From an uncultured Chloroflexia bacterium (GTDB lineage Bacteria; Chloroflexota; Limnocylindria; Limnocylindrales; CSP1-4): a stretch of 64,000 nt of DNA. The stretch spans positions 12,636 to 76,635 of the forward strand of contig CAVZYT010000005.1 of the NCBI GenBank assembly GCA_963779575.1. Direction: 5' to 3'. The notes under the pieces are model-generated. The model was not told where the DNA came from, searched no databases, and saw nothing but the letters and a program-made list of their open reading frames with translations. Shown here piece after piece: positions 9,816-51,707 of the stretch. The position numbers and the translations under genes are program-made. Numbering within the stretch: position 1 is the first letter of the stretch; the number at the start of each line of letters is the position of its first letter.

Positions 9816-9831
9816 TGGCGCGCCCGACAGG
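9816..9831. repeat. Exact copy of the tRNA-Arg(CCG) 3-prime 16-mer TGGCGCGCCCGACAGG (att-like; most distal copy)
   Basis: Identical to 51493-51508 (the complement of the tRNA 3-prime end). Followed by tgtaggacgcgcg, which resembles the arm seen at 39107 and 42277. Confidence 0.7.
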
Positions 9832-9895
9832 TGTAGGACGCGCGCTGAACGCGCTCTGCGTGTTCAGCGGCATCGCGGATTAGCAGGACGCCGCC

Positions 9896-9994
9896 CGCCG
9901 CCCTGCGACGCCTGCAGGACGATCGCGACGAGGGCGAGCCCGAACGCGACCAGTCCGAAGAGGGGCCACAGGGTCGCCCTCGCGTGGGTCGCCA
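9896..9994. repeat. 99-bp direct repeat, copy 1. A fragment copy of the 5-prime coding part of the membrane-protein gene at 16037-16738
   Basis: Aligned by eye to 16603-16701: a 70-bp identical run, then 2 mismatches, then an identical tail. Confidence 0.85.
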
Positions 9995-16036: not shown

Positions 16037-16738
16037 TCAACTCTCGCGTAGCGCAGAAGGTCGCCGTTGGACCACCGCCGCCTGCGCAGCTGCCCACAAC
16101 AGCACCAGGAGGGTCGGCAGCGAGGCCAAAGGCGACTGCGGGATCGCGACTGCCAACAGCGCGAGGACCCCGATGGCCGCTGCGGTCCACCCGCTCCAGC
16201 GGGGAAGGCCGCCGCCCTTGAGAATCAGGGCTGAAGTGGCCAGCATCGCGACGCCGAGAACGGCCCAGCTGGCGATGTAGAGAGCGACATGAACGTCGAC
16301 GACCGCCACCAGCGCCGAGATATCCGCGGTCGAGCCAGCACGGAAGCGGGCCAGACCGCCGATCACGAACCCCGCGAGCGTCAGGGCGACAAACGTCATC
16401 GCGAACGCTGACGCCGTCGAGCGGACCGAGGACAGCCGGTCGTGCTCACCCGCGGGAAGCGCCTGAACGAGCGAGACGAGGAATACGCCGAGGCTCAACA
16501 GGGCGAGAACCTGGAGGTAGGCCCCAGCCCAGACCGAGAAGGTGGGCGCCACCGTGTACGCGGCGACGATCTCAGCCTGCGATGCGCCCGGATTGACTCC
16601 GCCGCCGCCCTGCGACGCCTGCAGGACGATCGCGACGAGGGCGAGCCCGAACGCGACCAGTCCGAAGAGGGGCGACAGGTTCGCCCTCGCGTGGGTCGCC
16701 ACTGGACCCGTTGATCGAATTGCCTGCGTGGTCTCCAT
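16037..16738 (-). CDS. Multi-pass membrane protein, family not recognised
   Basis: 233 aa with about 6 hydrophobic helices. GAAGGAG precedes the ATG. Its codons ~13-45 are the source of the 99-bp repeat. Confidence 0.65.
   Translation of the reverse strand: METTQAIRSTGPVATHARANLSPLFGLVAFGLALVAIVLQASQGGGGVNPGASQAEIVAAYTVAPTFSVWAGAYLQVLALLSLGVFLVSLVQALPAGEHDRLSSVRSTASAFAMTFVALTLAGFVIGGLARFRAGSTADISALVAVVDVHVALYIASWAVLGVAMLATSALILKGGGLPRWSGWTAAAIGVLALLAVAIPQSPLASLPTLLVLLWAAAQAAVVQRRPSALRES
16603..16701. repeat. 99-bp direct repeat, copy 2 (within the intact membrane-protein gene)
   Basis: See 9896-9994. Confidence 0.85.
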
Positions 16739-31370: not shown

Positions 31371-31463
31371 ACGCCCAGGCGCACCCTGCCGGTCGCGGCG
31401 CACCCGTCCACTTCCGCCTCCGCTACGACGTCGCCGACAAGAAGGGGGCGATCACCCTGCGCC
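31371..31463 (+). mobile_element. Remnant of the C-terminal part of an IS481-family transposase
   Basis: Translates as ..AQAHPAGRGAPVHFRLRYDVADKKGAITLRR. This resembles the conserved IS481-type ..H(Y/F)RVRRDRVDxxGxVTLR.. segment, recalled from memory and not searched. No start codon or catalytic region is present. Confidence 0.4.
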
Positions 31464-31514
31464 GGACGCGCGTTAGCAACCTACCCGATCCCGATCGGGG
31501 GTTGGGATGAGCGG
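31464..31514. repeat. Copy of the att-flanking arm (P-prime-like) without the 16-nt core
   Basis: 43/51 identical to 39111-39161 by my count. Confidence 0.5.
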
Positions 31515-31623
31515 TTGGCGGCGGCTCGGTCGACGGCGCGGCATGGCCTGGTGTTCGGAAACACCGGAGCCGGCCCCGAGGCCGGCTCCGGTGGCTTGGC
31601 TGTCGATCACGTCGACGGCGTTC

Positions 31624-39036: not shown

Positions 39037-39090
39037 TGGAAGGGGGCGGTTGATGACCGGAAGGTGACTCCCTTCTGCCAGGGGCTGTTA

Positions 39091-39165
39091 TGGCGCGCCC
39101 GACAGGTGTTGGGCGCGCGTTAGCAACCTACGAGATCCCGATCGAGGGCCGGGACGAGTGGCTGG
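39091..39165. repeat. tRNA-Arg 16-mer copy plus the ~55-bp conserved arm (attP-like junction)
   Basis: The core is exact. The left flank ctgccaggggctgtta matches the recombinase 3-prime end (ctgccagaggctgtta at 51476-51492). The arm is 44/55 identical to 42277-42331. GCGCGCCC/GGGCGCGC can form an 8-bp hairpin. Confidence 0.7.
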
Positions 39166-39322
39166 CTGAGACCTCGACGTCCCCATCCGCGTACCGGCCG
39201 AGGTCGATCGTCCACAGCTCGGCGCCGTTGGATGCGCCTGCCGCCGCGTTCCAGACACCGGTCGTCCCGGTCGCCTCGCACGTCGCCGACGCGTCCGGAT
39301 CATCGGGATCGGCCGGTGGCAC
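39155..39322 (-). pseudogene. ~56-codon fragment homologous to an internal segment of the neighbouring M1 peptidase
   Basis: ..[51 protein letters not shown] here, versus ..DPSDDLDPVCDPHGTTGEWHAATGASKGPERWNVDLSAYRGRSVEVSLTY in 39735-41939. Confidence 0.5.
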
Positions 39323-39341
39323 GATCGAGTACGCCTGCCTC

Positions 39342-39659
39342 GAGGCGCCGATCGTCCAGGTCGCTGACGCGATCTGCGCGTCACGGCGGGGCGCCCGCGG
39401 CGAGTCCACGGACACGTACGTCAAGCGTCTCGAGGACCTGCAGGCAGTCGCCGAGAGCTTCGGCGGCGTCGAGCGCTCGTTCGCGGTCCAGGCTGGTCGC
39501 GAGGTGCGCATCCTCGTCCGACCCAGGGAGATCGACGATCTGACGGCGACGCGCCTGGCGCGCGACATCGTCAAGAAGATCGAGGGGCAGCTGACCTACC
39601 CGGGCCAGATCAAGGTCACGGTCATCCGCGAGACCCGGGCCGTGGAGTACGCGAAGTAG
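39342..39659 (+). pseudogene. rny: 3-prime fragment (~105 codons) of a ribonuclease Y gene
   Basis: ..[105 protein letters not shown] matches the highly conserved RNase Y C-terminus. The KH and HD domains are absent. Confidence 0.7.
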
Positions 39660-41939: not shown

Positions 41940-42136
41940 GGATCGAACCTCCCTCCGGGCCGACGGCGTCGCCTCCGTGGAGGAGACTCTCCGCCGCGGG
42001 CGAGCCGCAGTCATCGGTCGAGTGACCGATGTGCCATCGCCAGATGGCCACGTGCCGTCGGTGCCGATGCGACCGCTGGCCTGGCTCCGCGGATTGTCGG
42101 CAACGGTGGGGGGCGGCGGACGTTCCTGCCGATCGG

Positions 42137-42358
42137 GCCGACCTGCTCCACGTCATCTACGACGGGATCACCGTCGTAGGGAGGAAGATCGTGTCCGTCA
42201 GGCTCACTCCGTCGGCGCACGCCTACGGATTCGCGCTCGTGCTACCCGAATTGGTTGCACTGGCGCGCCCGACAGGTGTGGGACGCGCGTTAACAGCCTA
42301 TCGGATGCCGATCGAGGGTCGCGATGAGTGGATCGCCTCGGCGAGGCGACTGGCGTGA
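42137..42358 (+). pseudogene. C-terminal ~73 codons of a recombinase paralog, spanning an att core
   Basis: ..[72 protein letters not shown] parallels ..[45 protein letters not shown].. of 50214-51557. Confidence 0.65.
42261..42335. repeat. tRNA-Arg 16-mer copy plus the conserved arm (attP-like junction)
   Basis: The core is exact. See 39091-39165. Confidence 0.7.
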
Positions 42359-42603
42359 GAGACCGCCGCCTTCGGGGCGAACTCCCGCAGCACGCGACAC
42401 AGCGCCAGCTAGACGTCCTAGCGGCCTACGTTGAATCCGGGGGATCGGTATCGAGGGCCGCTGCTCGCGCGGGCGTCCGACCGAGCACCGCGAAACGCCA
42501 CCTCGCCGATCTGCGTGCCCGGACCGGGTTGACGACCGAGCAGCTGATCTACGTCGGTCGCGCTGAGGGCTGGCTGGTGGTCGACGCACGTGAACCTGGG
42601 TGA
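42355..42603 (+). CDS. Small helix-turn-helix protein (LuxR/sigma-region-4-like)
   Basis: The GTG at 42355 overlaps the recombinase-remnant stop (GTGA). ..TQRQLDVLAAYVESGGSVSRAAARAGVRPSTAKRHLADLRARTGLT.. An alternative GTG lies at 42328. Confidence 0.6.
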   Translation: MRDRRLRGELPQHATQRQLDVLAAYVESGGSVSRAAARAGVRPSTAKRHLADLRARTGLTTEQLIYVGRAEGWLVVDAREPG

Positions 42604-43469
42604 TCGGATGGCCCCCGCGGCGTAGTCAGCTGCATCGACAAGGCCCAGAGTCGCTGAGCGGCCGCCATATCCTGCGCGACGGCAGCCGGTGCGGCCACGA
42701 CCGGTGAGCCGCGTAGGTGGCCGGATCCACCTGGCTGGACGAAGGAGCCGCCTGGGATGTCCTGGGTCGCCGCGAAGAGCGTCGACTTCGCGCCGTCCCG
42801 TGGATCCTGCATCACAAGCCGGCCCGCTATCCCCATCGCGAAGGCCACAACGCCTGTGGCATGTCCAAAGAGGTTGGTCCGCACCATCCCAGGGTGAACC
42901 GCCATGGCCCGGACACCCGACCCTGCCGCCGTGAGTCGACGCTGCAACTCGAGGACGAACAGCATGTTCGCGAGTTTGCTATCGCTGTATGCCTGAGCGG
43001 CACGGTACGCGCGGTGCTCCCAGTTCAGGTCGCCAAAGTCGAGGCGCCCACGTGCGTGAGCGTCCGAGGCGACCGTCACGACTCGGTCCGTGATCACTGG
43101 GAGGAGCAGATTGGTCAAGGCAAAGTGACCGAGATGATTCGTGCCTATATGGCGCTCGAAGCCATCGACGGTTCGGCCTTGAGGCACCATCAGGATCCCG
43201 GCGTTGTTGATGAGGATGTCGAGATCGCCCGACCAACCCTCTGCGAACGCCCGAACAGACGCCAGATCCTCGAGGTCGAGATGTCGCACCTCTGTCTGGC
43301 CCGCGAACGTGCGGGCCGTCCCCTCGCCCTTCTCGACGTCCCTGACTGCGAGGATGACCCTGGCCCCGGCGGCTGACAGGGCGCGCGCACTGGCCTGTCC
43401 GATCCCGCTCGAGGCTCCCGTCACCACGACCGTCCGTCCGGCCATGCTCGGGAGAACCTGGGTGGTCAC
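42549..43469 (-). CDS. SDR family oxidoreductase (retinol-dehydrogenase-like)
   Basis: VVVTGASSGIGQ, NNAG, and Y..SK (YSDSKLAN) motifs. Confidence 0.85.
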   Translation of the reverse strand: MTTQVLPSMAGRTVVVTGASSGIGQASARALSAAGARVILAVRDVEKGEGTARTFAGQTEVRHLDLEDLASVRAFAEGWSGDLDILINNAGILMVPQGRTVDGFERHIGTNHLGHFALTNLLLPVITDRVVTVASDAHARGRLDFGDLNWEHRAYRAAQAYSDSKLANMLFVLELQRRLTAAGSGVRAMAVHPGMVRTNLFGHATGVVAFAMGIAGRLVMQDPRDGAKSTLFAATQDIPGGSFVQPGGSGHLRGSPVVAAPAAVAQDMAAAQRLWALSMQLTTPRGPSDHPGSRASTTSQPSARPT

Positions 43470-43969
43470 CGGAGTGCTCCTAGCGATAGCGCGAGCGCCG
43501 AGAGGTAGAGGCCCACGCCGTAGCTGGCATGGGTTCCGAGGTTACGCAGGCGTGTCGCCCGAGGGTTCGGAGTCCGCGACCCCGCAATCCCTGCCCCCAT
43601 GGCGGGTTGCATCACGAACCACGGAGCGACGATGGTGCCCAGGCCGACGATCAAGGCTGGCCAGATCGTCGGCGAGTGCACCCACTCAATGCCCCAGATC
43701 GCGAGCAGCACGAAGGCAAACGCCACTCCGATCGCGTAGTGCGCCGCATAGCCGAGGATTCGCTCGCCGCGGACGGGCTGCGCAGACCCGATCCGGTCGT
43801 GGACGAAGCGCCCGCGCGGGAAGTGGGCGATCCACCTTCCGAGGAGCGCGTAGTCGAGGGTCGCGATCCCGTACCGGCGCCGGAGCGTAAACCCCCAGAC
43901 ATCCATGAGAGCCGCGCCGCTGATGCCGATGAGTACGCCGGCGACGACGAACTGAGCGACGCCCGTCAT
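43466..43969 (-). CDS. DUF2938-like membrane protein
   Basis: ..LDYALLGRWIAHFPRGRFVHDRI..VRGERILGYAAHYAIGVAFA.. matches my recollection of DUF2938. Not searched. Confidence 0.65.
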   Translation of the reverse strand: MTGVAQFVVAGVLIGISGAALMDVWGFTLRRRYGIATLDYALLGRWIAHFPRGRFVHDRIGSAQPVRGERILGYAAHYAIGVAFAFVLLAIWGIEWVHSPTIWPALIVGLGTIVAPWFVMQPAMGAGIAGSRTPNPRATRLRNLGTHASYGVGLYLSALALSLGALR

Positions 43970-44388
43970 GCCAGAGCCTCCGACAACCCTTCAGCAGGCT
44001 CCGACGTCCCGACGGACGCTCCGGGCGCGCCATCGGGTCCGGCCACCAGGAAGGCGACCATCGCGAAGAAGCCGAAGTTGAAGATCCCCAACAGGAGCAG
44101 GACCGCGAACCACGTCTTGCTCTGGAGCTGCCAGGTGTTCAGCAGGGCTCCGATCCACGCGATGAGGCCTGCGATCAGGCCGCCAGCGATCGCGATGCCG
44201 CCGACGATCCCCAGGGGAAGCATCGCCCACGCGAGCGGGCTGCCCTTGAGGCCGACGATGTCGGGGCCGTTCATGACGAATGCGCCGTTCGCGTTTGCGA
44301 TCGCCACGGCCACGATGGCCAGGATGGCGCCTGCGATGACGGCGAGCCCGCCGCCGATGAAGAGCCTGGTGACAGTTGCTTTGGACAT
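43966..44388 (-). CDS. Small membrane protein (about 4 TM)
   Basis: I chose the start MSKATVTRLFIGGGLAVIAG after AGGAGA. Hydrophobic segments are the only support. Confidence 0.55.
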   Translation of the reverse strand: MSKATVTRLFIGGGLAVIAGAILAIVAVAIANANGAFVMNGPDIVGLKGSPLAWAMLPLGIVGGIAIAGGLIAGLIAWIGALLNTWQLQSKTWFAVLLLLGIFNFGFFAMVAFLVAGPDGAPGASVGTSEPAEGLSEALA

Positions 44389-44477
44389 TGGATGTCTCCT
44401 TTCGAGGTTGACGAAGGACCTTGGTGGTCGGTCCCGGCGATATGGCCGGCGGTTGCGCGAAGCGCCCGTGTCGTTGA

Positions 44478-45251
44478 TCAGCTGGTCGCCGCGAGGGCGT
44501 CGGCGGCACGAACCGGTGCGACGGCATCTGCCAGATGGCGCTCCGAAGACCGGAACCCCTTGGCGATCAGCCAGACGCCGAAGGTGACTTCGAAGAGTCC
44601 ACCGGGGATCGACAGCAGCAGCGAGACATGGATCCCGAAGATCTCGGCGATCGCGCCCGTGAGGAGGACCGCGTAGCCCACGACGCCCCACAGCGCGAGC
44701 GTCCGAGGGACCAATCGTGTTCGGAACACGAACCAGGTCATGAACAGGGCCCCGAATGCCAAGGTTCCCTCGCCAAGCTGGTAGGCCAGCGTATTGGCCT
44801 GCATCAGGAGCGATCCGAGCCCAGTGGCCCCGCTGTCGGCGGCGCCGGTGACGAATTCGCTCAGCGGCACGAGCATCAGTAGGAACAGCACCCCGAGGTC
44901 CAGGAGGACGACCTGGGCGGTGATCGCGGCGAGGTAGACGAGCCCGCTGCGCTTGCCCCGGCGCTCAGCGATCGGGAAGAACAGCACGCCCTTCCCGATG
45001 TCGGTGGCGGTGTTGAGGAGCATGAGGAAGGCGCCGACCAGCAACGTGGTCGAGTGCGCGGAAAGTGTGGCCATGAAGTCAGGCGCGGTCGTGACGGAAC
45101 TCACCAGGCCGAAGCCGATTCCGTAGACCACGAACCCGGCGATGAAGAGCGCCCCGAAGATCCTCGAAAAGCGCTTACCGGGCCCCTGCGGGTCCTCGAT
45201 GGACTGGTTGGTCGAGCCGGCTGAGTCGCGGCCCTGAACGGTGGACGTCAT
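44478..45251 (-). CDS. Multi-pass membrane protein (possibly DUF4386-like)
   Basis: I chose the start MTSTVQGRD after AAGGAGA. About 6 hydrophobic segments. Confidence 0.6.
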   Translation of the reverse strand: MTSTVQGRDSAGSTNQSIEDPQGPGKRFSRIFGALFIAGFVVYGIGFGLVSSVTTAPDFMATLSAHSTTLLVGAFLMLLNTATDIGKGVLFFPIAERRGKRSGLVYLAAITAQVVLLDLGVLFLLMLVPLSEFVTGAADSGATGLGSLLMQANTLAYQLGEGTLAFGALFMTWFVFRTRLVPRTLALWGVVGYAVLLTGAIAEIFGIHVSLLLSIPGGLFEVTFGVWLIAKGFRSSERHLADAVAPVRAADALAATS

Positions 45252-45333
45252 GTCATCTCCTTGGTCGTTGTTGGGTGTGTGGTTCGGGCCTCCCGGCCGC
45301 GTTGGTTGGATGGCGCGTGGGCGTCCGCCGGCA

Positions 45334-46304
45334 TCACACGGTGATCGCGACCTTCCCCTGCGCATGGCCGGTGCCAACGTGGTCGATCGCCTGCGCTGCG
45401 CTGCTCAAGGGATAGGTCCGATCCAGGACGGGCGTGACCTTGCCAGCCTCGATCAGCTCCTTGAGGGCGACGAGGTCGTCGTGGTTCGTGGAGACGAGGA
45501 AGTTCGCGGCTCTCTGCGTGCCCGATCGGAACATGAGCTTTGCCCGGATGAGCCGGCCCGCGCTCGAGAACCATCGGTTGCCGAAGTTCCCGCCGTTCGG
45601 GATGAGCACGCCCGTGGCGGTCAGCGCGCGTCGGAGGCGGGAGAGCGAGTGGTTCGAGACGTTGTCGAGGATGAGGTCGTAGCGCTTCCCGCTCGCCGTG
45701 AAGTCCTCCTTGGTGTAGTCGATCACGTGGTCGGCCCCGACCGCGCGGACGAGCTCGAGGTTCCGCGTGCTCGCGACCGCCGGTGACCTCGGCGCCGAGC
45801 GCCTTGGCGATCTGGATCGGCGAATGTGCCGATGCCGCCTGACGCCCCGTTGATCAGGACCGTCTGTCCGGCACGGACCTTGCCGTGGTCGCGGATGGCC
45901 TGGAGGGCGACGAGGCCCGCCATCGGAACGGTGGCGGCCTGCTCGAAGGTCAGGTTGGCTGGCTTCAGGGCCAGCTCGTCCTCGGACGCGGCGGCGTACT
46001 CGGCGTAGGAGCCGTGCGACACGCCGAACACCTCGTCGCCGGGCTTGAAGCGCGTCACGTCCTGCCGACCGCAGCGACGTCCCCGGCGACATCCGTCCCG
46101 CGGACGGCGATCTTGGGCCTGCGCAGCCCGTGCACGGGGCGCGCGATGTACGGCAGCCCGCTCATCACCGCCCAGTCGGCCGAGGTTGACGCCGGCCGCG
46201 CGGACGCGGACGAGCACCTCGTTGTCCCCGATCACTGGCTTCTCGATCTCCCGGGCGTCGAGGACCTCGGCCGAGCCGTAGGTGTCCTGAACGATCGCCT
46301 GCAT
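45334..46304 (-). pseudogene. Zinc-type alcohol dehydrogenase / quinone oxidoreductase (MDR family) with about 4 frameshifts
   Basis: Pieces read MQAIVQDTYGSAEVLDAREIEKPVIGDNEVLVRVRAAGVN | DWAVMSGLPYIARPVHGLRRPKIAVRGTDVAGDVAAVG | QDVTRFKPGDEVFG...LINGASGGIGTFA | QIAKALGAEVTG | ASTRNLELVRAVGADHVIDY...GHAQGKVAITV. Frame switches lie near 46180, 46065, 45822 and 45785. Confidence 0.75.
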
Positions 46305-46369
46305 GGAACGCTCCTCTGTGTCGACTCGGTCTTCTCTGAGTCCTCTCCTGGCGTTATGTCGGATCGGCT

Positions 46370-46573
46370 CGAACGGGGATCGGACGATAGGCAGATCACC
46401 TCGTGGCCTCGCAACGCTTCGAGAAAGGGCTGGAAGCTGCCGCAGACAAGGCAGTGGATGGTGTGATCGTCGACCTCGACCTCCGAGACTCCGGACGCCC
46501 GCTCGATCTGGCGGGTCGGAGGGGTATCGACGAAGGTGACCTCGACTCGCCATGTGGCTCGGTTGTTGAACAT
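46370..46573 (-). pseudogene. Possible fragment of an ABC-transporter ATPase C-terminal domain
   Basis: ..WRVEVTFVDTPPTRQIERASGVSEVEVDDHTIHCLVCGSFQPFLEALRGHEVICLSS resembles the C-terminal regulatory domain of DrrA-type ATPases. No Walker motifs are present. Confidence 0.3.
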
Positions 46574-46673
46574 GCGAGGAGGATGGGATCGGGCGACGGG
46601 TCGTCCACGTCGACCGGATTGCGTATCCGATGCGTAGTCCCGGTCGAGACGCGCGGTGCTACCGTGCGGCGCG

Positions 46674-49023
46674 ATGGCCCGACCGAGACGTCGCCTAGGC
46701 AACCTGCCCGCGGAGACGACCAGCTTCGTGGGCCGCCGCCGGGAGCTGGCTGAGCTTCGCAGTGCGCTCGCCAGGGCCCGCCTCGTCAGCCTCGTCGGCC
46801 CGGGCGGCGTGGGCAAGACGCGCCTGGCTCTTCGAGCGGCGACGGACCTCGGACGTGGCTTCGCGGACGGAGCCTGGTGGGTCGACCTCGCCGAGGTCCG
46901 CGATGCGGCGCTCGTGTCGGGTGCAGCGGTCGCAGCGCTGGACCTGCGGGACCAGGCCGCGGCCGAGCCGTTGCAGATCCTGTCGTCCTACCTGCGGGAC
47001 CGCGAGGCTGCTGCTCGTCTTCGACAACTGCGAGCACGTGCTCGACGCGTCTGCTGCCCTGGTGGCGGACATCCTCCGTGCCGCACCCAACGTCCGCGTG
47101 ATCGCGACGAGCCGCGAGCCCCTGCAGGTCCCGGGCGAGCACGTCGTCCCGGTGCCGCCGCTGGAGCTTCCGGCCGGAGGGAGACGAGCAGCCGATCTCC
47201 CGGCTGCTCCAGAACGAGGCCGTCATGTTGTTCACGGAGCGAGCGGCGGCCGCATCAGGGTCGTTCGATCTGAGCGCGTCGAATCGATCGGCCGTCGTCG
47301 GCCTGTGCCGGCGACTCGATGGCCTGCCGCTCGCGATCGAGCTTGCCGCCGTCAGGACGCGCGTGCTCACCGTCGAGCAGATCCTCGATCGACTGACGGA
47401 CCGGTTCGCGCTCCTGACCGGAGGAGGCCGCGCGGCACTGCCTCGGCAGCAGACGCTGAGGATGACCATCGACTGGAGCCACGACCTGTTGACGGCCGCG
47501 GAGCAGAGGCTCCTGCGCCGCCTGTGCGTGTTCGCCGGCCGGTTCACCGTCGATGACGTCGAGTCGGTCTTCGCGATCGACCAGGAATCCGGCGCCCAGG
47601 CGCTGGACCTGCTGGCCGCGCTGGTCGACAAGTCGCTGGTCACGAGGGAGGACGCGTTCGGCGTCGCCTGCTATCGCCTGCACGAGACGATGCGCGAGTA
47701 CGCCAGCCTCAAGCTGCGAGAGGCGGGCGAGGTCGGAGCGGCTCGACGACGTGCTACGTCGAGTACTACCGGACGCAGTCCCGCGATCTGCGGGAGGCGC
47801 TGCTTCGCGATCATCCGGCTCGGTCCTCCGGTCTGGCGCCCCAGGGCCCAACCGGACGCTCCGAATGGCTCCAGTGGGTCGACCTCGAGATCGACAACAT
47901 CCGATCGGCACTCCAGAAGTGCCTGGCTGCTTCGGACTGGCGGCGTGGTCTGGAGCTCGCCACGTCCGTCGGCTACTTCTGGGTCACGCGCGGGACCACG
48001 GAGAGCATCCGCTGGTTCGATGACCTGCTCGCGGCGGCTGAGGGATCCGCAGACGTTCCGCCGCGGGCGTACTACTTCCGGGGATGGATGAGCATCCTGA
48101 AGGGCGACCCCGAGGCGGCCGGGCCCTGGCTTGCTCGGGCGATCGCCGCAGCCCGCGTCGCGGTACAGCTCCCGCAGCTGTCCGAATCGCTGTCCCTCGC
48201 CTCGACCGCGGAGGACATGGCAGGAGATCGCACAGCCGCCCGACGACTCCTCGACGAAGCCGAGACCATCACGCCGCGGCGTCGACCACTACCCCGCGAC
48301 GATGGCGTTGATCCAGGCACGGCCATCCATGCGCTGTTCGAGGGAGACCTCGCCGCCGCGGAGGCCGCGTCCTCTGAGGGCGCTCGACTGAGCCGCGAGG
48401 TCGGCGACCTGTACTACCTCGAACGGATGCTCATGAACCTCGGCCTCGTCGCGCTGGCGGCCGGGGATCTGCCCGGGTCGAAGGCGCGGTTCATCGAGGG
48501 GCTGCGGATCGCGAAGCAGACCGACAACCGGCTCGGACAGTCCTCCTTCCTGCGTCGATTGGGCGGGCAGGCGGCGAGTTCCGGCCAGGCGCGCCTGGCG
48601 GCGCGGTTGCTCGGGGCAGCGGATGCCCTCGGTGCGGCTGCCGGCGCCAGCACGACCGGTCCCATCGAGCCGGAGCTGGCGCGGGCGACGGAAGCGGCGA
48701 CAGCGGCGATGGGCGCGGCGAGGTTCGAGGCCGAGTACGCCGCGGGCACACGGTTGAATCGCGAGGCAGCGCTGCGACTTGCGCTCGGCGAACCGGACGA
48801 GCTCGATGTCGACGCCGATCACCAGGTCGACACCGGACCACTTTCGAAGCGAGAGGTGGAGGTGGCGAGACTGATCGGCGAGGGTCTCGGCAACAGGGAG
48901 ATCGCGGCGCGCCTGTTCATCTCGGAACGGACGGTCACGACCCACGTCGGCAACATCCTGAACAAGCTCGGGTTCGATTCGCGCGTCCAGGTCGCGAGCT
49001 GGATCGCGACGTCTGATCCGTAG
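46674..49023 (+). pseudogene. Large ATP-binding LuxR-family (LAL/AfsR-like NB-ARC plus TPR plus HTH) regulator with at least 5 frameshifts
   Basis: Walker A ([13 protein letters not shown]), [22 protein letters not shown]-like repeats and a terminal LuxR HTH (..LSKREVEVARLIGEGLGNREIAARLFISERTVTTHVGNILNKLG) are in order. Frame changes lie near 47008, 47175, 47737, 47751 and probably 48273/48322. Confidence 0.75.
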
Positions 49024-49032
49024 CGCGTGCCC

Positions 49033-50007
49033 TTAGACCTGTGAGCCCTGTCCGCCCGCCCCGTCCCACTCGCTGACTTCGGCCACCAAGGGCACGAGTA
49101 CGCGATCTGGCTCGTCCTCGATCGCCGCTGGCGCCGACGACGGGACCGATTGCGCGCTGAACGCACCCACCCAGACACCAACCAAGACGAACGCTCCACC
49201 GAGCACGAATGTGAGCCGGATCGGCTCGCCCAGGATGACCGCGGCCAGCGCGACACCCGCCAGTGGCTTGAAGAGATCCGTGTAGGAGTAGCCCGACGCC
49301 GTCCAGCGTCCGATGATGAAGATGGCGAGCGGAAACAGCAGCACGGTCCCGAACACGACCAGAAACACCAAGGCCGCCCACGTCTGCGGCTGGCTCGGGA
49401 GGACCCAGGGCTCTCCCGCGAAGACCGAGAGCGCGACCAGGATCGGCAGGGCGACGGCGCCCCCCACCGCGTTCGCCGAGATTGGGTGGCCCGGTGGCAG
49501 ACGTTTGATCACAACGGCGGTGACCGCGCTGAAGAACATCGCTCCACCCAGCGCCAGCAGGGCGGGCACCGGGACCGCGGCACCAAGCTGGTCACTCACG
49601 ACGACGACCATTCCTGCGGCGGCGACCAGGGCCCCCGCCACGCCCCGGAATGTGAACCGCTCGAGGCCGATCACTGCGGCCACGGCGAGGGTCACCAGTG
49701 GCGTCACCGCGAATACGATCGCGCCCATCGACGCCGACGAGCCGCTCACGCCCACGTAGAGCAACGCGGTCGACGCGACGAAGGTGAGACTGAACAGCAG
49801 GGCGCCCACGAGGTTCGCTCGGCGCGGGAACGGGATGTGCAGCGCGAGAGCCAAGGCGGTGAAGATGGTCACTGCCAGCGCGTAGCGCAGGGTGGCGGCC
49901 CAGAACGGTGGCAACTCGAAGCTGCCCAGGCGGATTGCGACCGAGACGGCCCCGGCGATCAGGACGAAGCCGAAGAATGCCGCCAGTGTGACGCGGTCTG
50001 GACGCAT
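49033..50007 (-). CDS. EamA/DMT-family transporter
   Basis: 10-TM layout with two EamA-like halves. Confidence 0.8.
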   Translation of the reverse strand: MRPDRVTLAAFFGFVLIAGAVSVAIRLGSFELPPFWAATLRYALAVTIFTALALALHIPFPRRANLVGALLFSLTFVASTALLYVGVSGSSASMGAIVFAVTPLVTLAVAAVIGLERFTFRGVAGALVAAAGMVVVVSDQLGAAVPVPALLALGGAMFFSAVTAVVIKRLPPGHPISANAVGGAVALPILVALSVFAGEPWVLPSQPQTWAALVFLVVFGTVLLFPLAIFIIGRWTASGYSYTDLFKPLAGVALAAVILGEPIRLTFVLGGAFVLVGVWVGAFSAQSVPSSAPAAIEDEPDRVLVPLVAEVSEWDGAGGQGSQV

Positions 50008-50213
50008 GCGACGAGGCTAATGCCATGCGTCAACGTTCGTCACCATTAGTCGCCGACGCTGGCTCCCGAGGCGTAGCACCCGAGGCGGATAGACCCGGCC
50101 GCTTGCGCCAACCACGCTCATGGCGATGTCGACGGGCGTGCACTCCAGCGTCACCAGCGTCAGAGACGGCACGACAACGGCTGCCGCTCTGACGGAAAGC
50201 GTCGGCCGGTCGC

Positions 50214-51557
50214 GTGATCCGGACCTGCGACAACGGGCACCCGCCCGCCCGCGTCCCGTCCGGGATGCGGTGCGCAGCGTGCGAGCGCAGGCGCCCCAGT
50301 CGGCAGGCGCGCGGGTACGACGCGGCCCACGAGCGGGCGCGAGCAACGCTCGCGGCCCTGCTGCCCGCGCCCTGCGCGTGCGGGTGCGGCGCGGTGCTGG
50401 ACGCGGGATCCGACTGGGTGGCGGCACACCTGGTGGACGGCGACCCCTCCGCCGGCTGGGCGGCCATGTGCCGCTCGGGCAACGAACGCATGAAGCGCAG
50501 GGGGTGGGGTAGCACCTCGGATGGCGTGGCACCCGGGAGTACCCGTGACCCGGGAGGGCATGCCGGGCTCGGCTTTCGACGAATGCCCGCGCCGCCACAC
50601 ACGCTCGAGATCGACCCCGATCGTATGCCCATCGCCGTCGGCCTGTTCGAGCGGTACGCACTCGGCAACGTGAGCGCGACGGGGCTCGAGGCGGAAACCG
50701 GCCTAGCTGCGACCCGGATCCGGATGATCCTCATGAACCCGCTCTACAACGGCTGGATCCGCCGACACCGTGGGCCGCGCGAGACTCGCCGGCCAGCGCC
50801 CTGGCGCTTTGACCCACCGGTCTCGGACGACCTCTGGGCGCGGGTCGAGGACGTGCGGCGAGCGAGAACACAGGGTGGGGGACCGCGCCACCGCGGTCGC
50901 CTCGACATGCTTGCGGGGCTCCTGGAGTGCACCTGCGGGAGGCGGATTCGATCAGACGGTCGGATGGGGAACTCGGAGCGGGTCGCCAAGCTGCACACCG
51001 ACCCATGTGCCGGCTGGGGCTCGAAAGCCCGGATTGCCGCGACCACCTGGGAGGTACCCATCCTCGCCCAGCTAGGGTCGCTCCGTGTCGACCACGCCAT
51101 GCGCGCTCAGATCACCGCGGTGCTCTCTGCCGGTGATCGTCCATTGACCATGGATCGTGCCCGCCTCGAACGCCAGATGCGCGAGCTTGCATTGGAGCAT
51201 GCCGCGGCACGGCTCGACGACGCGGAGTACCTCGCGCGGATGGCACGCCTCCGCGGAGACCTGGAGATCGTGGGGGTGCAGCCGGCCCGGGACCTGCCGG
51301 CGCGTCGCGCGACTGAGTGGCTCGACGCCCTCGCCGAAACCTGGCAGCAGACGGAACAAGTAGAGGAGAAATCCGACGTGATCCACGCGATATACGAACG
51401 GATGGTCATCGAAGGGCCGCGCTTCGTCGGCCTGCGCCTCACACCGGCGGCGTATCGGCACGGAATGGCGCTCGCGCTGCCAGAGGCTGTTATGGCGCGC
51501 CCGACAGGATTCGAACCTGCGACCTTCGGCTCCGGAGGCCGACGCTCTATCCACTGA
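50214..51557 (+). CDS. Recombinase-type protein: an HNH-like zinc-finger N-terminus fused to serine-integrase DNA-binding domains (recombinase domain, zinc ribbon, coiled coil). No resolvase catalytic domain recognised
   Basis: ..LEIDPDRMPIAVGLFERYALG..IRMILMNPLYNGWIRR.. (recombinase domain). ..MLAGLLECTCGRRIRSDG.. (zinc ribbon). A long helical region follows. The N-terminal ~100 aa read C..C..RGYDAAHERAR..PCACGCG..AAHL..CRSGN, which is HNH-like. The last 17 codons read through the att core into the tRNA gene. Confidence 0.7.
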   Translation: MIRTCDNGHPPARVPSGMRCAACERRRPSRQARGYDAAHERARATLAALLPAPCACGCGAVLDAGSDWVAAHLVDGDPSAGWAAMCRSGNERMKRRGWGSTSDGVAPGSTRDPGGHAGLGFRRMPAPPHTLEIDPDRMPIAVGLFERYALGNVSATGLEAETGLAATRIRMILMNPLYNGWIRRHRGPRETRRPAPWRFDPPVSDDLWARVEDVRRARTQGGGPRHRGRLDMLAGLLECTCGRRIRSDGRMGNSERVAKLHTDPCAGWGSKARIAATTWEVPILAQLGSLRVDHAMRAQITAVLSAGDRPLTMDRARLERQMRELALEHAAARLDDAEYLARMARLRGDLEIVGVQPARDLPARRATEWLDALAETWQQTEQVEEKSDVIHAIYERMVIEGPRFVGLRLTPAAYRHGMALALPEAVMARPTGFEPATFGSGGRRSIH

Positions 51558-51568
51558 GCTACAGGCGC
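51493..51568 (-). tRNA. tRNA-Arg, anticodon CCG, CCA encoded
   Basis: Folded by hand: acceptor GCGCCTG/CGGGCGC, D arm GCTC-AGTGGATA-GAGC, anticodon arm TCGGC-CTCCGGA-GCCGA, variable loop AGGTC, T arm GCAGG-TTCGAAT-CCTGT, discriminator G, then CCA. 76 nt. Confidence 0.9.
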
Positions 51569-51707
51569 GCGGGGCCCGATGATACCGGTCGAGTACGCGT
51601 CCGGCGATGGGCGCGATCACGTCAACTCGAGCGACACCGATCCCTCATCCGACCACGCGCGGCTGCGCCGGCGAAGACCACGATGGCGACCCGGTCAGGG
51701 CAAAGGT

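Follow-up and report, generated by a model that had tools for sequence, protein, structure and literature searches.

We examined a 64,000-nucleotide stretch of contig CAVZYT010000005.1 from an uncultured Chloroflexia bacterium (hereafter the window), in which an open reading frame (ORF) at 50214-51557 couples an HNH-like zinc module to the DNA-binding portions of a large serine integrase. This ORF is very probably a chimeric pseudogene that arose from one illegitimate deletion within an integrated mobile element. In the proposed ancestral order, a gene for an HNH-like protein of ~129 amino acids (aa) would have been followed by a ~59-aa ORF translationally coupled to the integrase gene (int), then by int itself, encoding a serine integrase of ~500 aa, and finally by attP or the tRNA-Arg(CCG) junction. 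A single deletion, of at least 614 bp relative to the closest related contig and with 1 nt in common between its breakpoints, would have removed the DNA in between. The leftover pieces would then have been joined in frame by chance, giving what reads as an HNH-like module followed by a recombinase domain, a zinc ribbon and a coiled coil. Because the product has no catalytic domain, it should be unable to cleave or exchange DNA, and the integrase is presumably dead. As the assembled genome holds no intact paralogue, the array of elements at tRNA-Arg has probably been immobilised.

A mobile element that becomes fixed in place once a deletion destroys its integrase is a textbook case, and the finding is in itself an ordinary one, the pseudogene of an integrase whose kind (serine integrases at tRNA genes) is rarely described. 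It also serves as a warning for high-GC genomes, where the chimeric ORF left by a deletion can stay open over a long stretch and resemble a new domain architecture. A by-product of modest practical interest is a family of serine integrases, ~500 aa long and with many members, from metagenome-assembled genomes (MAGs) of Chloroflexota (Limnocylindria-type). For this family one can infer an attB (the 3' end of tRNA-Arg(CCG)), an attP of ~46 bp, a predicted GG crossover and an int ORF that spans attP.

The deletion and its breakpoints

The closest relative of the locus is L004, a metagenome contig ~93% identical in DNA that encodes the intact integrase P0001, and it was compared with the window by pairwise blastn. 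On L004 the small gene, the short ORF and the intact integrase gene lie in a row. Two flanks align: window positions 50199-50550, which include the module, correspond to L004 839-1190 (92.6% identity), and 50547-51588, which include the retained integrase part, correspond to L004 1801-2843 (93.8%). Between these flanks the window is without L004 1187-1800, or 614 bp, which cover the final ~18 codons of the small gene together with the 59-aa ORF and integrase residues 1-164, that is, the catalytic domain and helix αE. A first-pass annotation of this DNA, made from the letters alone, had named a deletion fusion as the simplest explanation. The comparison bears this out, since the parents lie next to each other in L004, each side matches the window at 93-94%, and the 614 bp between them are absent.

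The junction reads …ACC CGT|GAC CCG GGA… in the window, where the left parent has ACCCGTGCCCGA and the right parent GGGACGACCCGGGC, and a single G is common to both. Each breakpoint lies at the first position of a codon, and the fusion is thus in frame by chance. We also considered a deletion between two copies of ACCCGGGAG that flank the window junction; this was ruled out, as both copies are kept and the junction shares 1 nt.

In L004 the small-protein frame starts at 854 and joins the C-terminal part of the 59-aa ORF at …GTRAR; the resulting frame stops at 1312, overlapping the start of int (at 1309) by a GTGA. This join, within L004 854-1312, lies only 4 bp from the window's left breakpoint and may mark a fragile spot near …ACCCGTGCCCG. 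In a second protein, P0148, the small HNH-like gene is likewise fused to the 59-aa ORF. In L001-3, L006-7 and L014-16 (for example, L001 9825-10004, L002 8947-9126 and L014 1325-1501) the ~59-aa ORF lies directly against int; it has a 4-nt overlap with the integrase start in every intact relative and no Pfam hit. It is perhaps a coupled accessory factor or a directionality factor.

Pfam, NCBIfam and PHROG scans of the 447-aa window protein gave no match to Resolvase or HNH models, and the NCBIfam scan returned nothing. A sub-threshold match to Pfam Recombinase was obtained at aa 166-216 (E 0.034), and PHROG 95 'integrase' matched aa 114-401 (E 2e-12). In order to cover all six frames of the 64-kb window, tblastn was used with three intact relatives, and residues 1-122/138 of the integrase family had no match in any frame. 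A genome search found no catalytic-domain residues anywhere in the assembly, a MAG of 3.78 Mb in 9 contigs with 64% completeness, in which the integrase is present only as the chimeric copy and one 60-aa remnant. The first-pass annotation had seen no resolvase domain with a Ser nucleophile in this ORF or in the other two frames of 50008-50600, and it was right, there being no profile match and no tblastn match across the window. Its domain layout stands in part: the recombinase, zinc-ribbon and coiled-coil portion is real, although the integrase-derived part begins at aa 112 and not at about aa 125.

The two parent families

A search with the full ORF returned 401 homologues, the best of them 74-92% identical and almost all ~500 aa in length with a PF00239 Resolvase domain. 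Query coverage reached at most 85% among them, the matched stretch being the C-terminal 73-85% of the query. By BLASTP, P0001 is 92% identical in amino acids over its residues 139-500, with homology starting at query residue 88, and homology to P0003 starts at query residue 73. The Resolvase domain of P0001 occupies residues 19-159 and contains the motif ARWIRESTAGQ, with the Ser nucleophile within IRESTAGQ. The family profile matches the catalytic domain of the TP901-1 integrase at profile positions 15-123, which is the portion absent from the window protein. In an AlphaFold2 (AF2) model of P0001 (predicted local distance difference test score, pLDDT, 66), an α/β domain at 15-118 and the long helix αE at 128-161 are followed by a helical domain, and the C-terminal half holds a β-rich region (290-313) and long helices (330-432). 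Foldseek matched this model to the full-length serine integrase 9dxh (E 1.5e-16), to PhiC31 (9tep/9rah; E ~1e-12) and to a complex of a large serine recombinase C-terminal domain with DNA (4kis; E 5e-8). The window copy begins at the P0001-equivalent residue 165, and the catalytic domain and αE are both absent from it.

The identity to P0001, the fold matches and PHROG 95 establish that the C-terminal part of the window ORF descends from a large serine recombinase, and the P0001 family is a bona fide but divergent group of such enzymes, hosted by Chloroflexota / Candidatus Limnocylindrales MAGs. Like the PhiC31, Bxb1, TP901-1 and A118 (LI) integrases, its intact members have a Resolvase domain with R-x-S-T-x-x-Q, αE, a recombinase domain, a zinc-ribbon region and a coiled coil, and their attP-like sites are also imperfect inverted repeats of ~46 bp around a central dinucleotide. 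They differ from this class in their diverged sequence (Pfam Recombinase stays below threshold and Zn_ribbon_recom is undetected), in a target that is the 3' end of a tRNA gene, and in an int ORF that crosses attP. The window copy, without residues 1-164, is no active member of the class.

When residues 1-112 were searched alone, 52 homologues were recovered that cover 99% of the query and carry no Pfam domain; their lengths range from 111 to 191 aa, with most at 121-143 and typically 129. The closest stand-alone relative, P0121, differs from the module at 6 of 111 residues. Invariant or nearly so in the family alignment are C5, H9, C20, C23, R33-G34-Y35, H39, C54, C58, H72, C86, N90, E91 and K94. 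The family motif CRSCNERAKRRG occurs in most members. The window subclade (50214-50546 and P0121-P0127) shows CRSGN instead, against CRSCN in most of the others, and its ββα unit is thereby short of one of the four surrounding Cys, a loss seen in several members that are otherwise conserved.

In the AF2 model of P0145 (pLDDT 76) the ββα unit lies at 69-96, with strands at 69-74 and 77-85 and a helix at 87-96, and contains the invariant H72 and N90. A Foldseek search of BFVD placed the HNH endonuclease of Arthrobacter phage Noely at the top (probability 0.99, template modelling (TM) score 0.43-0.44), followed by several Mycobacterium phage HNH proteins, with E-values of 0.07 or worse except for one multidomain uncultured-phage protein at E 4.7e-4. 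Weak matches were found to Pfam Endonuclease_7 (best E 0.0014) and, by sequence in the PDB, to the HNH nuclease 9k32 (E 0.13). The PDB fold match to T4 endonuclease VII was non-significant (E 5), and no Pfam HNH model or NCBIfam model reached threshold for the small-protein family. The model and these matches suggest that HNH-like is a fair label for the module, whereas its formal membership of the superfamily would be a weaker claim.

A likeness to actinophage HNH proteins had been noticed in the first-pass annotation, and the fold does match actinophage HNH endonucleases best, although the relatives come from Chloroflexota / Ca. Limnocylindrales MAGs and not from actinobacteria. With the small HNH/Endonuclease VII-like zinc proteins of those phages the module shares Cys-rich zinc knuckles and a ββα unit with invariant H72 and N90. 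It differs from them in that its last HNH His is replaced, giving an H-N-N-type pattern, and in that the window subclade is short of one zinc Cys.

Recurrence, timing and alternative explanations

The window junction is unique among the sequences searched. No homologue among 5.8 billion clustered proteins spans both parts with this junction, an exact search did not find the junction DNA in JGI metagenome contigs, and the exact window protein, tried with V or M as first residue, is absent from a collection of 15 billion sequences. The only other fusion found is P0167 (L013 4331-4906), an in-frame join of HNH-like aa 1-72 to the C-terminal ~120 aa of an int that is 59% identical; its breakpoints differ from those in the window, and its ORF also ends in tRNA-Arg. 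Elsewhere the small gene is separate and directly upstream of a separate int (L034 and L031), is followed by int C-terminal remnants and the core (L032 and L037), or, in many other loci, occurs with no int inside 4 kb. Across the genus, intact integrase copies (G003, G004, G006 and G014) stand beside many that are truncated, frameshifted or stop-containing. As there is no second copy of the window junction, and as P0167 has other breakpoints, these fusions appear to be recurrent decay products and not a conserved architecture. Deletions between the two neighbouring genes seem to recur, in a pattern that fits random decay better than a selected architecture. The alternative raised in the first-pass annotation, an uncharacterised domain architecture, is not supported by this survey: the junction does not recur in the databases, the other fusion has different breakpoints, and the two genes are separate elsewhere. 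The collection of homologues that it had proposed did bring up a fusion of the two genes once more, as P0167, but no junction shared across independent genomes.

In order to date the deletion, codon changes were polarised with L004, L005, L006 and L002 over 314 shared codons. In the retained integrase part, 26 changes of the window lineage are synonymous and 4 are non-synonymous, which is similar to intact relatives. Changes that are mostly synonymous point to purifying selection for nearly all of the lineage's separate history, and the deletion is thus probably recent. Three points weigh against a recent, inactivating deletion. No neutral decay is visible, the frame being fully open, and the same 26 to 4 ratio would also fit continued selection on the fusion. 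The junction is known from assembled sequence alone, so that an assembly artefact, although unlikely, has to be weighed. Finally, an intact integrase may lie in the missing part of the 64%-complete genome.

Continued selection on the fusion would, on the sequence evidence, be less likely than a recent deletion. The fusion could be an exapted, functional protein, in which the recombinase and zinc-ribbon part targets att or tRNA-Arg sites while the HNH-like module acts as a nuclease or zinc-binding effector, or else a dead protein that blocks att sites and excludes related elements. We regard this as improbable, even though the frame stays open through all 447 codons, the substitutions in the integrase part are mostly synonymous, and the HNH-like part is nearly that of P0121. 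No second sequence with the window junction turned up in any database searched, and the quite different breakpoints of P0167, with ~120 aa of int kept, are as expected of random deletions. The upstream partner that overlaps the start of the small gene in relatives is gone from the window, where the alignment with L004 breaks off 15 bp ahead of the start codon. A promoter scan of 49950-50300, which tells little for this phylum, found none of the sigma-70-like type, and the window subclade had already become short of one Cys of the ββα zinc site. A narrower version, in which selection keeps a catalytically dead, att-site-binding fusion that excludes incoming elements at tRNA-Arg, or keeps it as a site-directed nuclease, would be very improbable; the case for it comes solely from the open frame and the mostly synonymous substitutions of the lineage.

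The chance is similarly slim that the real genome has an intact small gene, 59-aa ORF and int, and that the assembler collapsed the 614 bp between the flanks. The genome is indeed an incomplete MAG, but breakpoints that share only 1 nt offer no repeat to collapse, the contigs are long, many other real rearrangement scars lie nearby, and comparable deletions are found in relatives. It is extremely unlikely that a catalytic domain is present and merely hidden by a frameshift or an unusual start, which would make the integrase interrupted and not truncated. High-GC DNA does hold many frames open, and an alternative frame could be missed by eye. However, the six-frame tblastn of the window with the three intact relatives gave no match to residues 1-122, none was found in the whole assembly, and the corresponding 614 bp are simply absent in the DNA alignment; on these three results, a catalytic domain hidden in another frame was rejected.

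Attachment sites and the tRNA-Arg array

The 16-bp core TGGCGCGCCCGACAGG is the reverse complement of the tRNA 3' end and has five exact copies in the window, at 9816, 35543, 39091, 42261 and 51493. The first-pass annotation correctly reported an identical core of this length and held it to be atypical for a serine integrase. That objection falls away, as this stretch is the tRNA 3' end, which attP has to carry in order to rebuild the gene, and the repeats centre on a GG dinucleotide. Specifically, the attP-like junctions (window 39067-39136 and 42237-42306; L006 3096-3165) form imperfect inverted repeats whose centre is the GG at core positions 15-16. The L006 site, GGCTGTTATGGCGCGCCCGACA-GG-TGTTGGACGCGCACTAACAGCC, is symmetric at 19 of 24 positions, and the window site at 39091 at 17 of 24. 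The GG at the core edge is the predicted crossover dinucleotide, and the 14 nt of extra identity would exist because integration displaces the tRNA 3' end, for which the element must supply a replacement. In sequence, the attP-like sites have the normal anatomy of a serine-integrase attP, being short, built of inverted half-sites and adjoining int.

The P half-site lies inside the int ORF, and consequently the last ~20-30 Int codons differ between the excised and integrated forms. The integrated form ends in …PTGFEPATFGSGGRRSIH and has 500 aa, and the attP or tandem form has 511 aa (P0004, P0019). In the window, the 3' end of the chimeric ORF overlaps tRNA-Arg(CCG), its final codons running through the att core into the tRNA, and the final 16 residues, GFEPATFGSGGRRSIH, are tRNA-antisense codons. 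The coordinates of the chimeric ORF, its parts and the sites that bound the array are listed in the table.

Table. Chimeric ORF, its component parts and associated tRNA and core sites (window coordinates)
Feature	Position	Strand	Remarks
Chimeric ORF	50214-51557	+	GTG start, 447 aa; from the ORF listing
HNH-like zinc module, codons 1-111	50214..50546	+	5' portion of a stand-alone ~129-aa gene, last ~18 codons gone
Deletion junction CGT|GAC	50546..50548	+	Codon 111 of the small gene joined in frame to integrase codon 165
Recombinase domain/zinc-ribbon/coiled-coil portion, codons 112-447	50547..51557	+	Equals P0001 residues 165-500
tRNA-Arg(CCG)	51493-51568	-	ARAGORN; its 3'-terminal 16 nt (51493-51508) are the att core, element-supplied (attR)
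Core copy	42261..42276	+	Exact match; left edge of the integrase-proximal segment 42277-51508
Most distal core copy	9816..9831	+	Exact match; probably the outer attL of the whole array

Integration of serine recombinases into tRNA genes is described as rare, with precedents in Mycobacterium AICEs (integrative and conjugative elements of actinomycetes) in tRNA-Leu and in φRSM1 in tRNA-Ser (Ghinet et al. 2011, PMC3218068). As in these systems, a serine recombinase here integrates into a tRNA gene, and the intact relatives carry a Prim-Pol gene, as many AICEs do. The present family differs from them in its target, tRNA-Arg(CCG), and in its hosts, Chloroflexota / Ca. Limnocylindrales MAGs, and the window copy is a decayed remnant.

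The five cores mark out a tandem array at one tRNA, ~41.7 kb in extent and made up of decayed integrative elements, with its outer boundary probably at 9816 and the chimeric gene at its tRNA-Arg(CCG) end. The 42261 core is preceded by an int C-terminal remnant at 42101-42280 (by tblastn, residues 311-394 of P0019 match 42101-42355 at E 1.7e-22), and the 39091 core by another at 39075-39110. A recognisable arm follows four of the five core copies, all except 51493 in the tRNA, and is well conserved at 39091 and 42261; the conserved P' arm is TGT(A/G/T)GG(A/G)CGCGCG. The array segments contain cargo-type genes, among them DUF2938, DUF4386, a LuxR-type regulator, EamA, an M1 peptidase, an AraC-type regulator and a metallo-β-lactamase-fold protein. 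The Prim-Pol and helix-turn-helix (HTH) genes of intact relatives are absent from these segments, and 42277-51508 in particular has cargo-type genes only and no Prim-Pol or replication genes. A search for the empty attB in relatives, made with the array flanks, gave no usable match, as the flanks are too diverged. The same arrangement of integrase and tRNA is found in L001, L002, L004 and L005.

A comparable case is that of the tandem AICEs Sav3708/Sav3728 at tRNA-Arg of Streptomyces avermitilis (PMC3218068). There, as here, successive elements are bounded by several direct copies of the tRNA 3' end, five of them in the window. The integrase is a serine integrase here and a tyrosine integrase there, and every unit of the present array is decayed.

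Several minor features were observed along the array. A further copy of the arm lies at 31444-31576 without the 16-bp core, and a 92-nt 'tRNA-Ala(GGC)' called by ARAGORN at 31485-31576 overlaps it and is probably spurious. A patchwork of gene fragments is seen in the ORF at 39090-39659, which starts at a core copy and runs from the conserved arm into an apparent RNase Y C-terminus. A direct repeat of 100 bp, its copies 98% identical, lies at 9895-9994 and 16602-16701, just inside the distal att copy.

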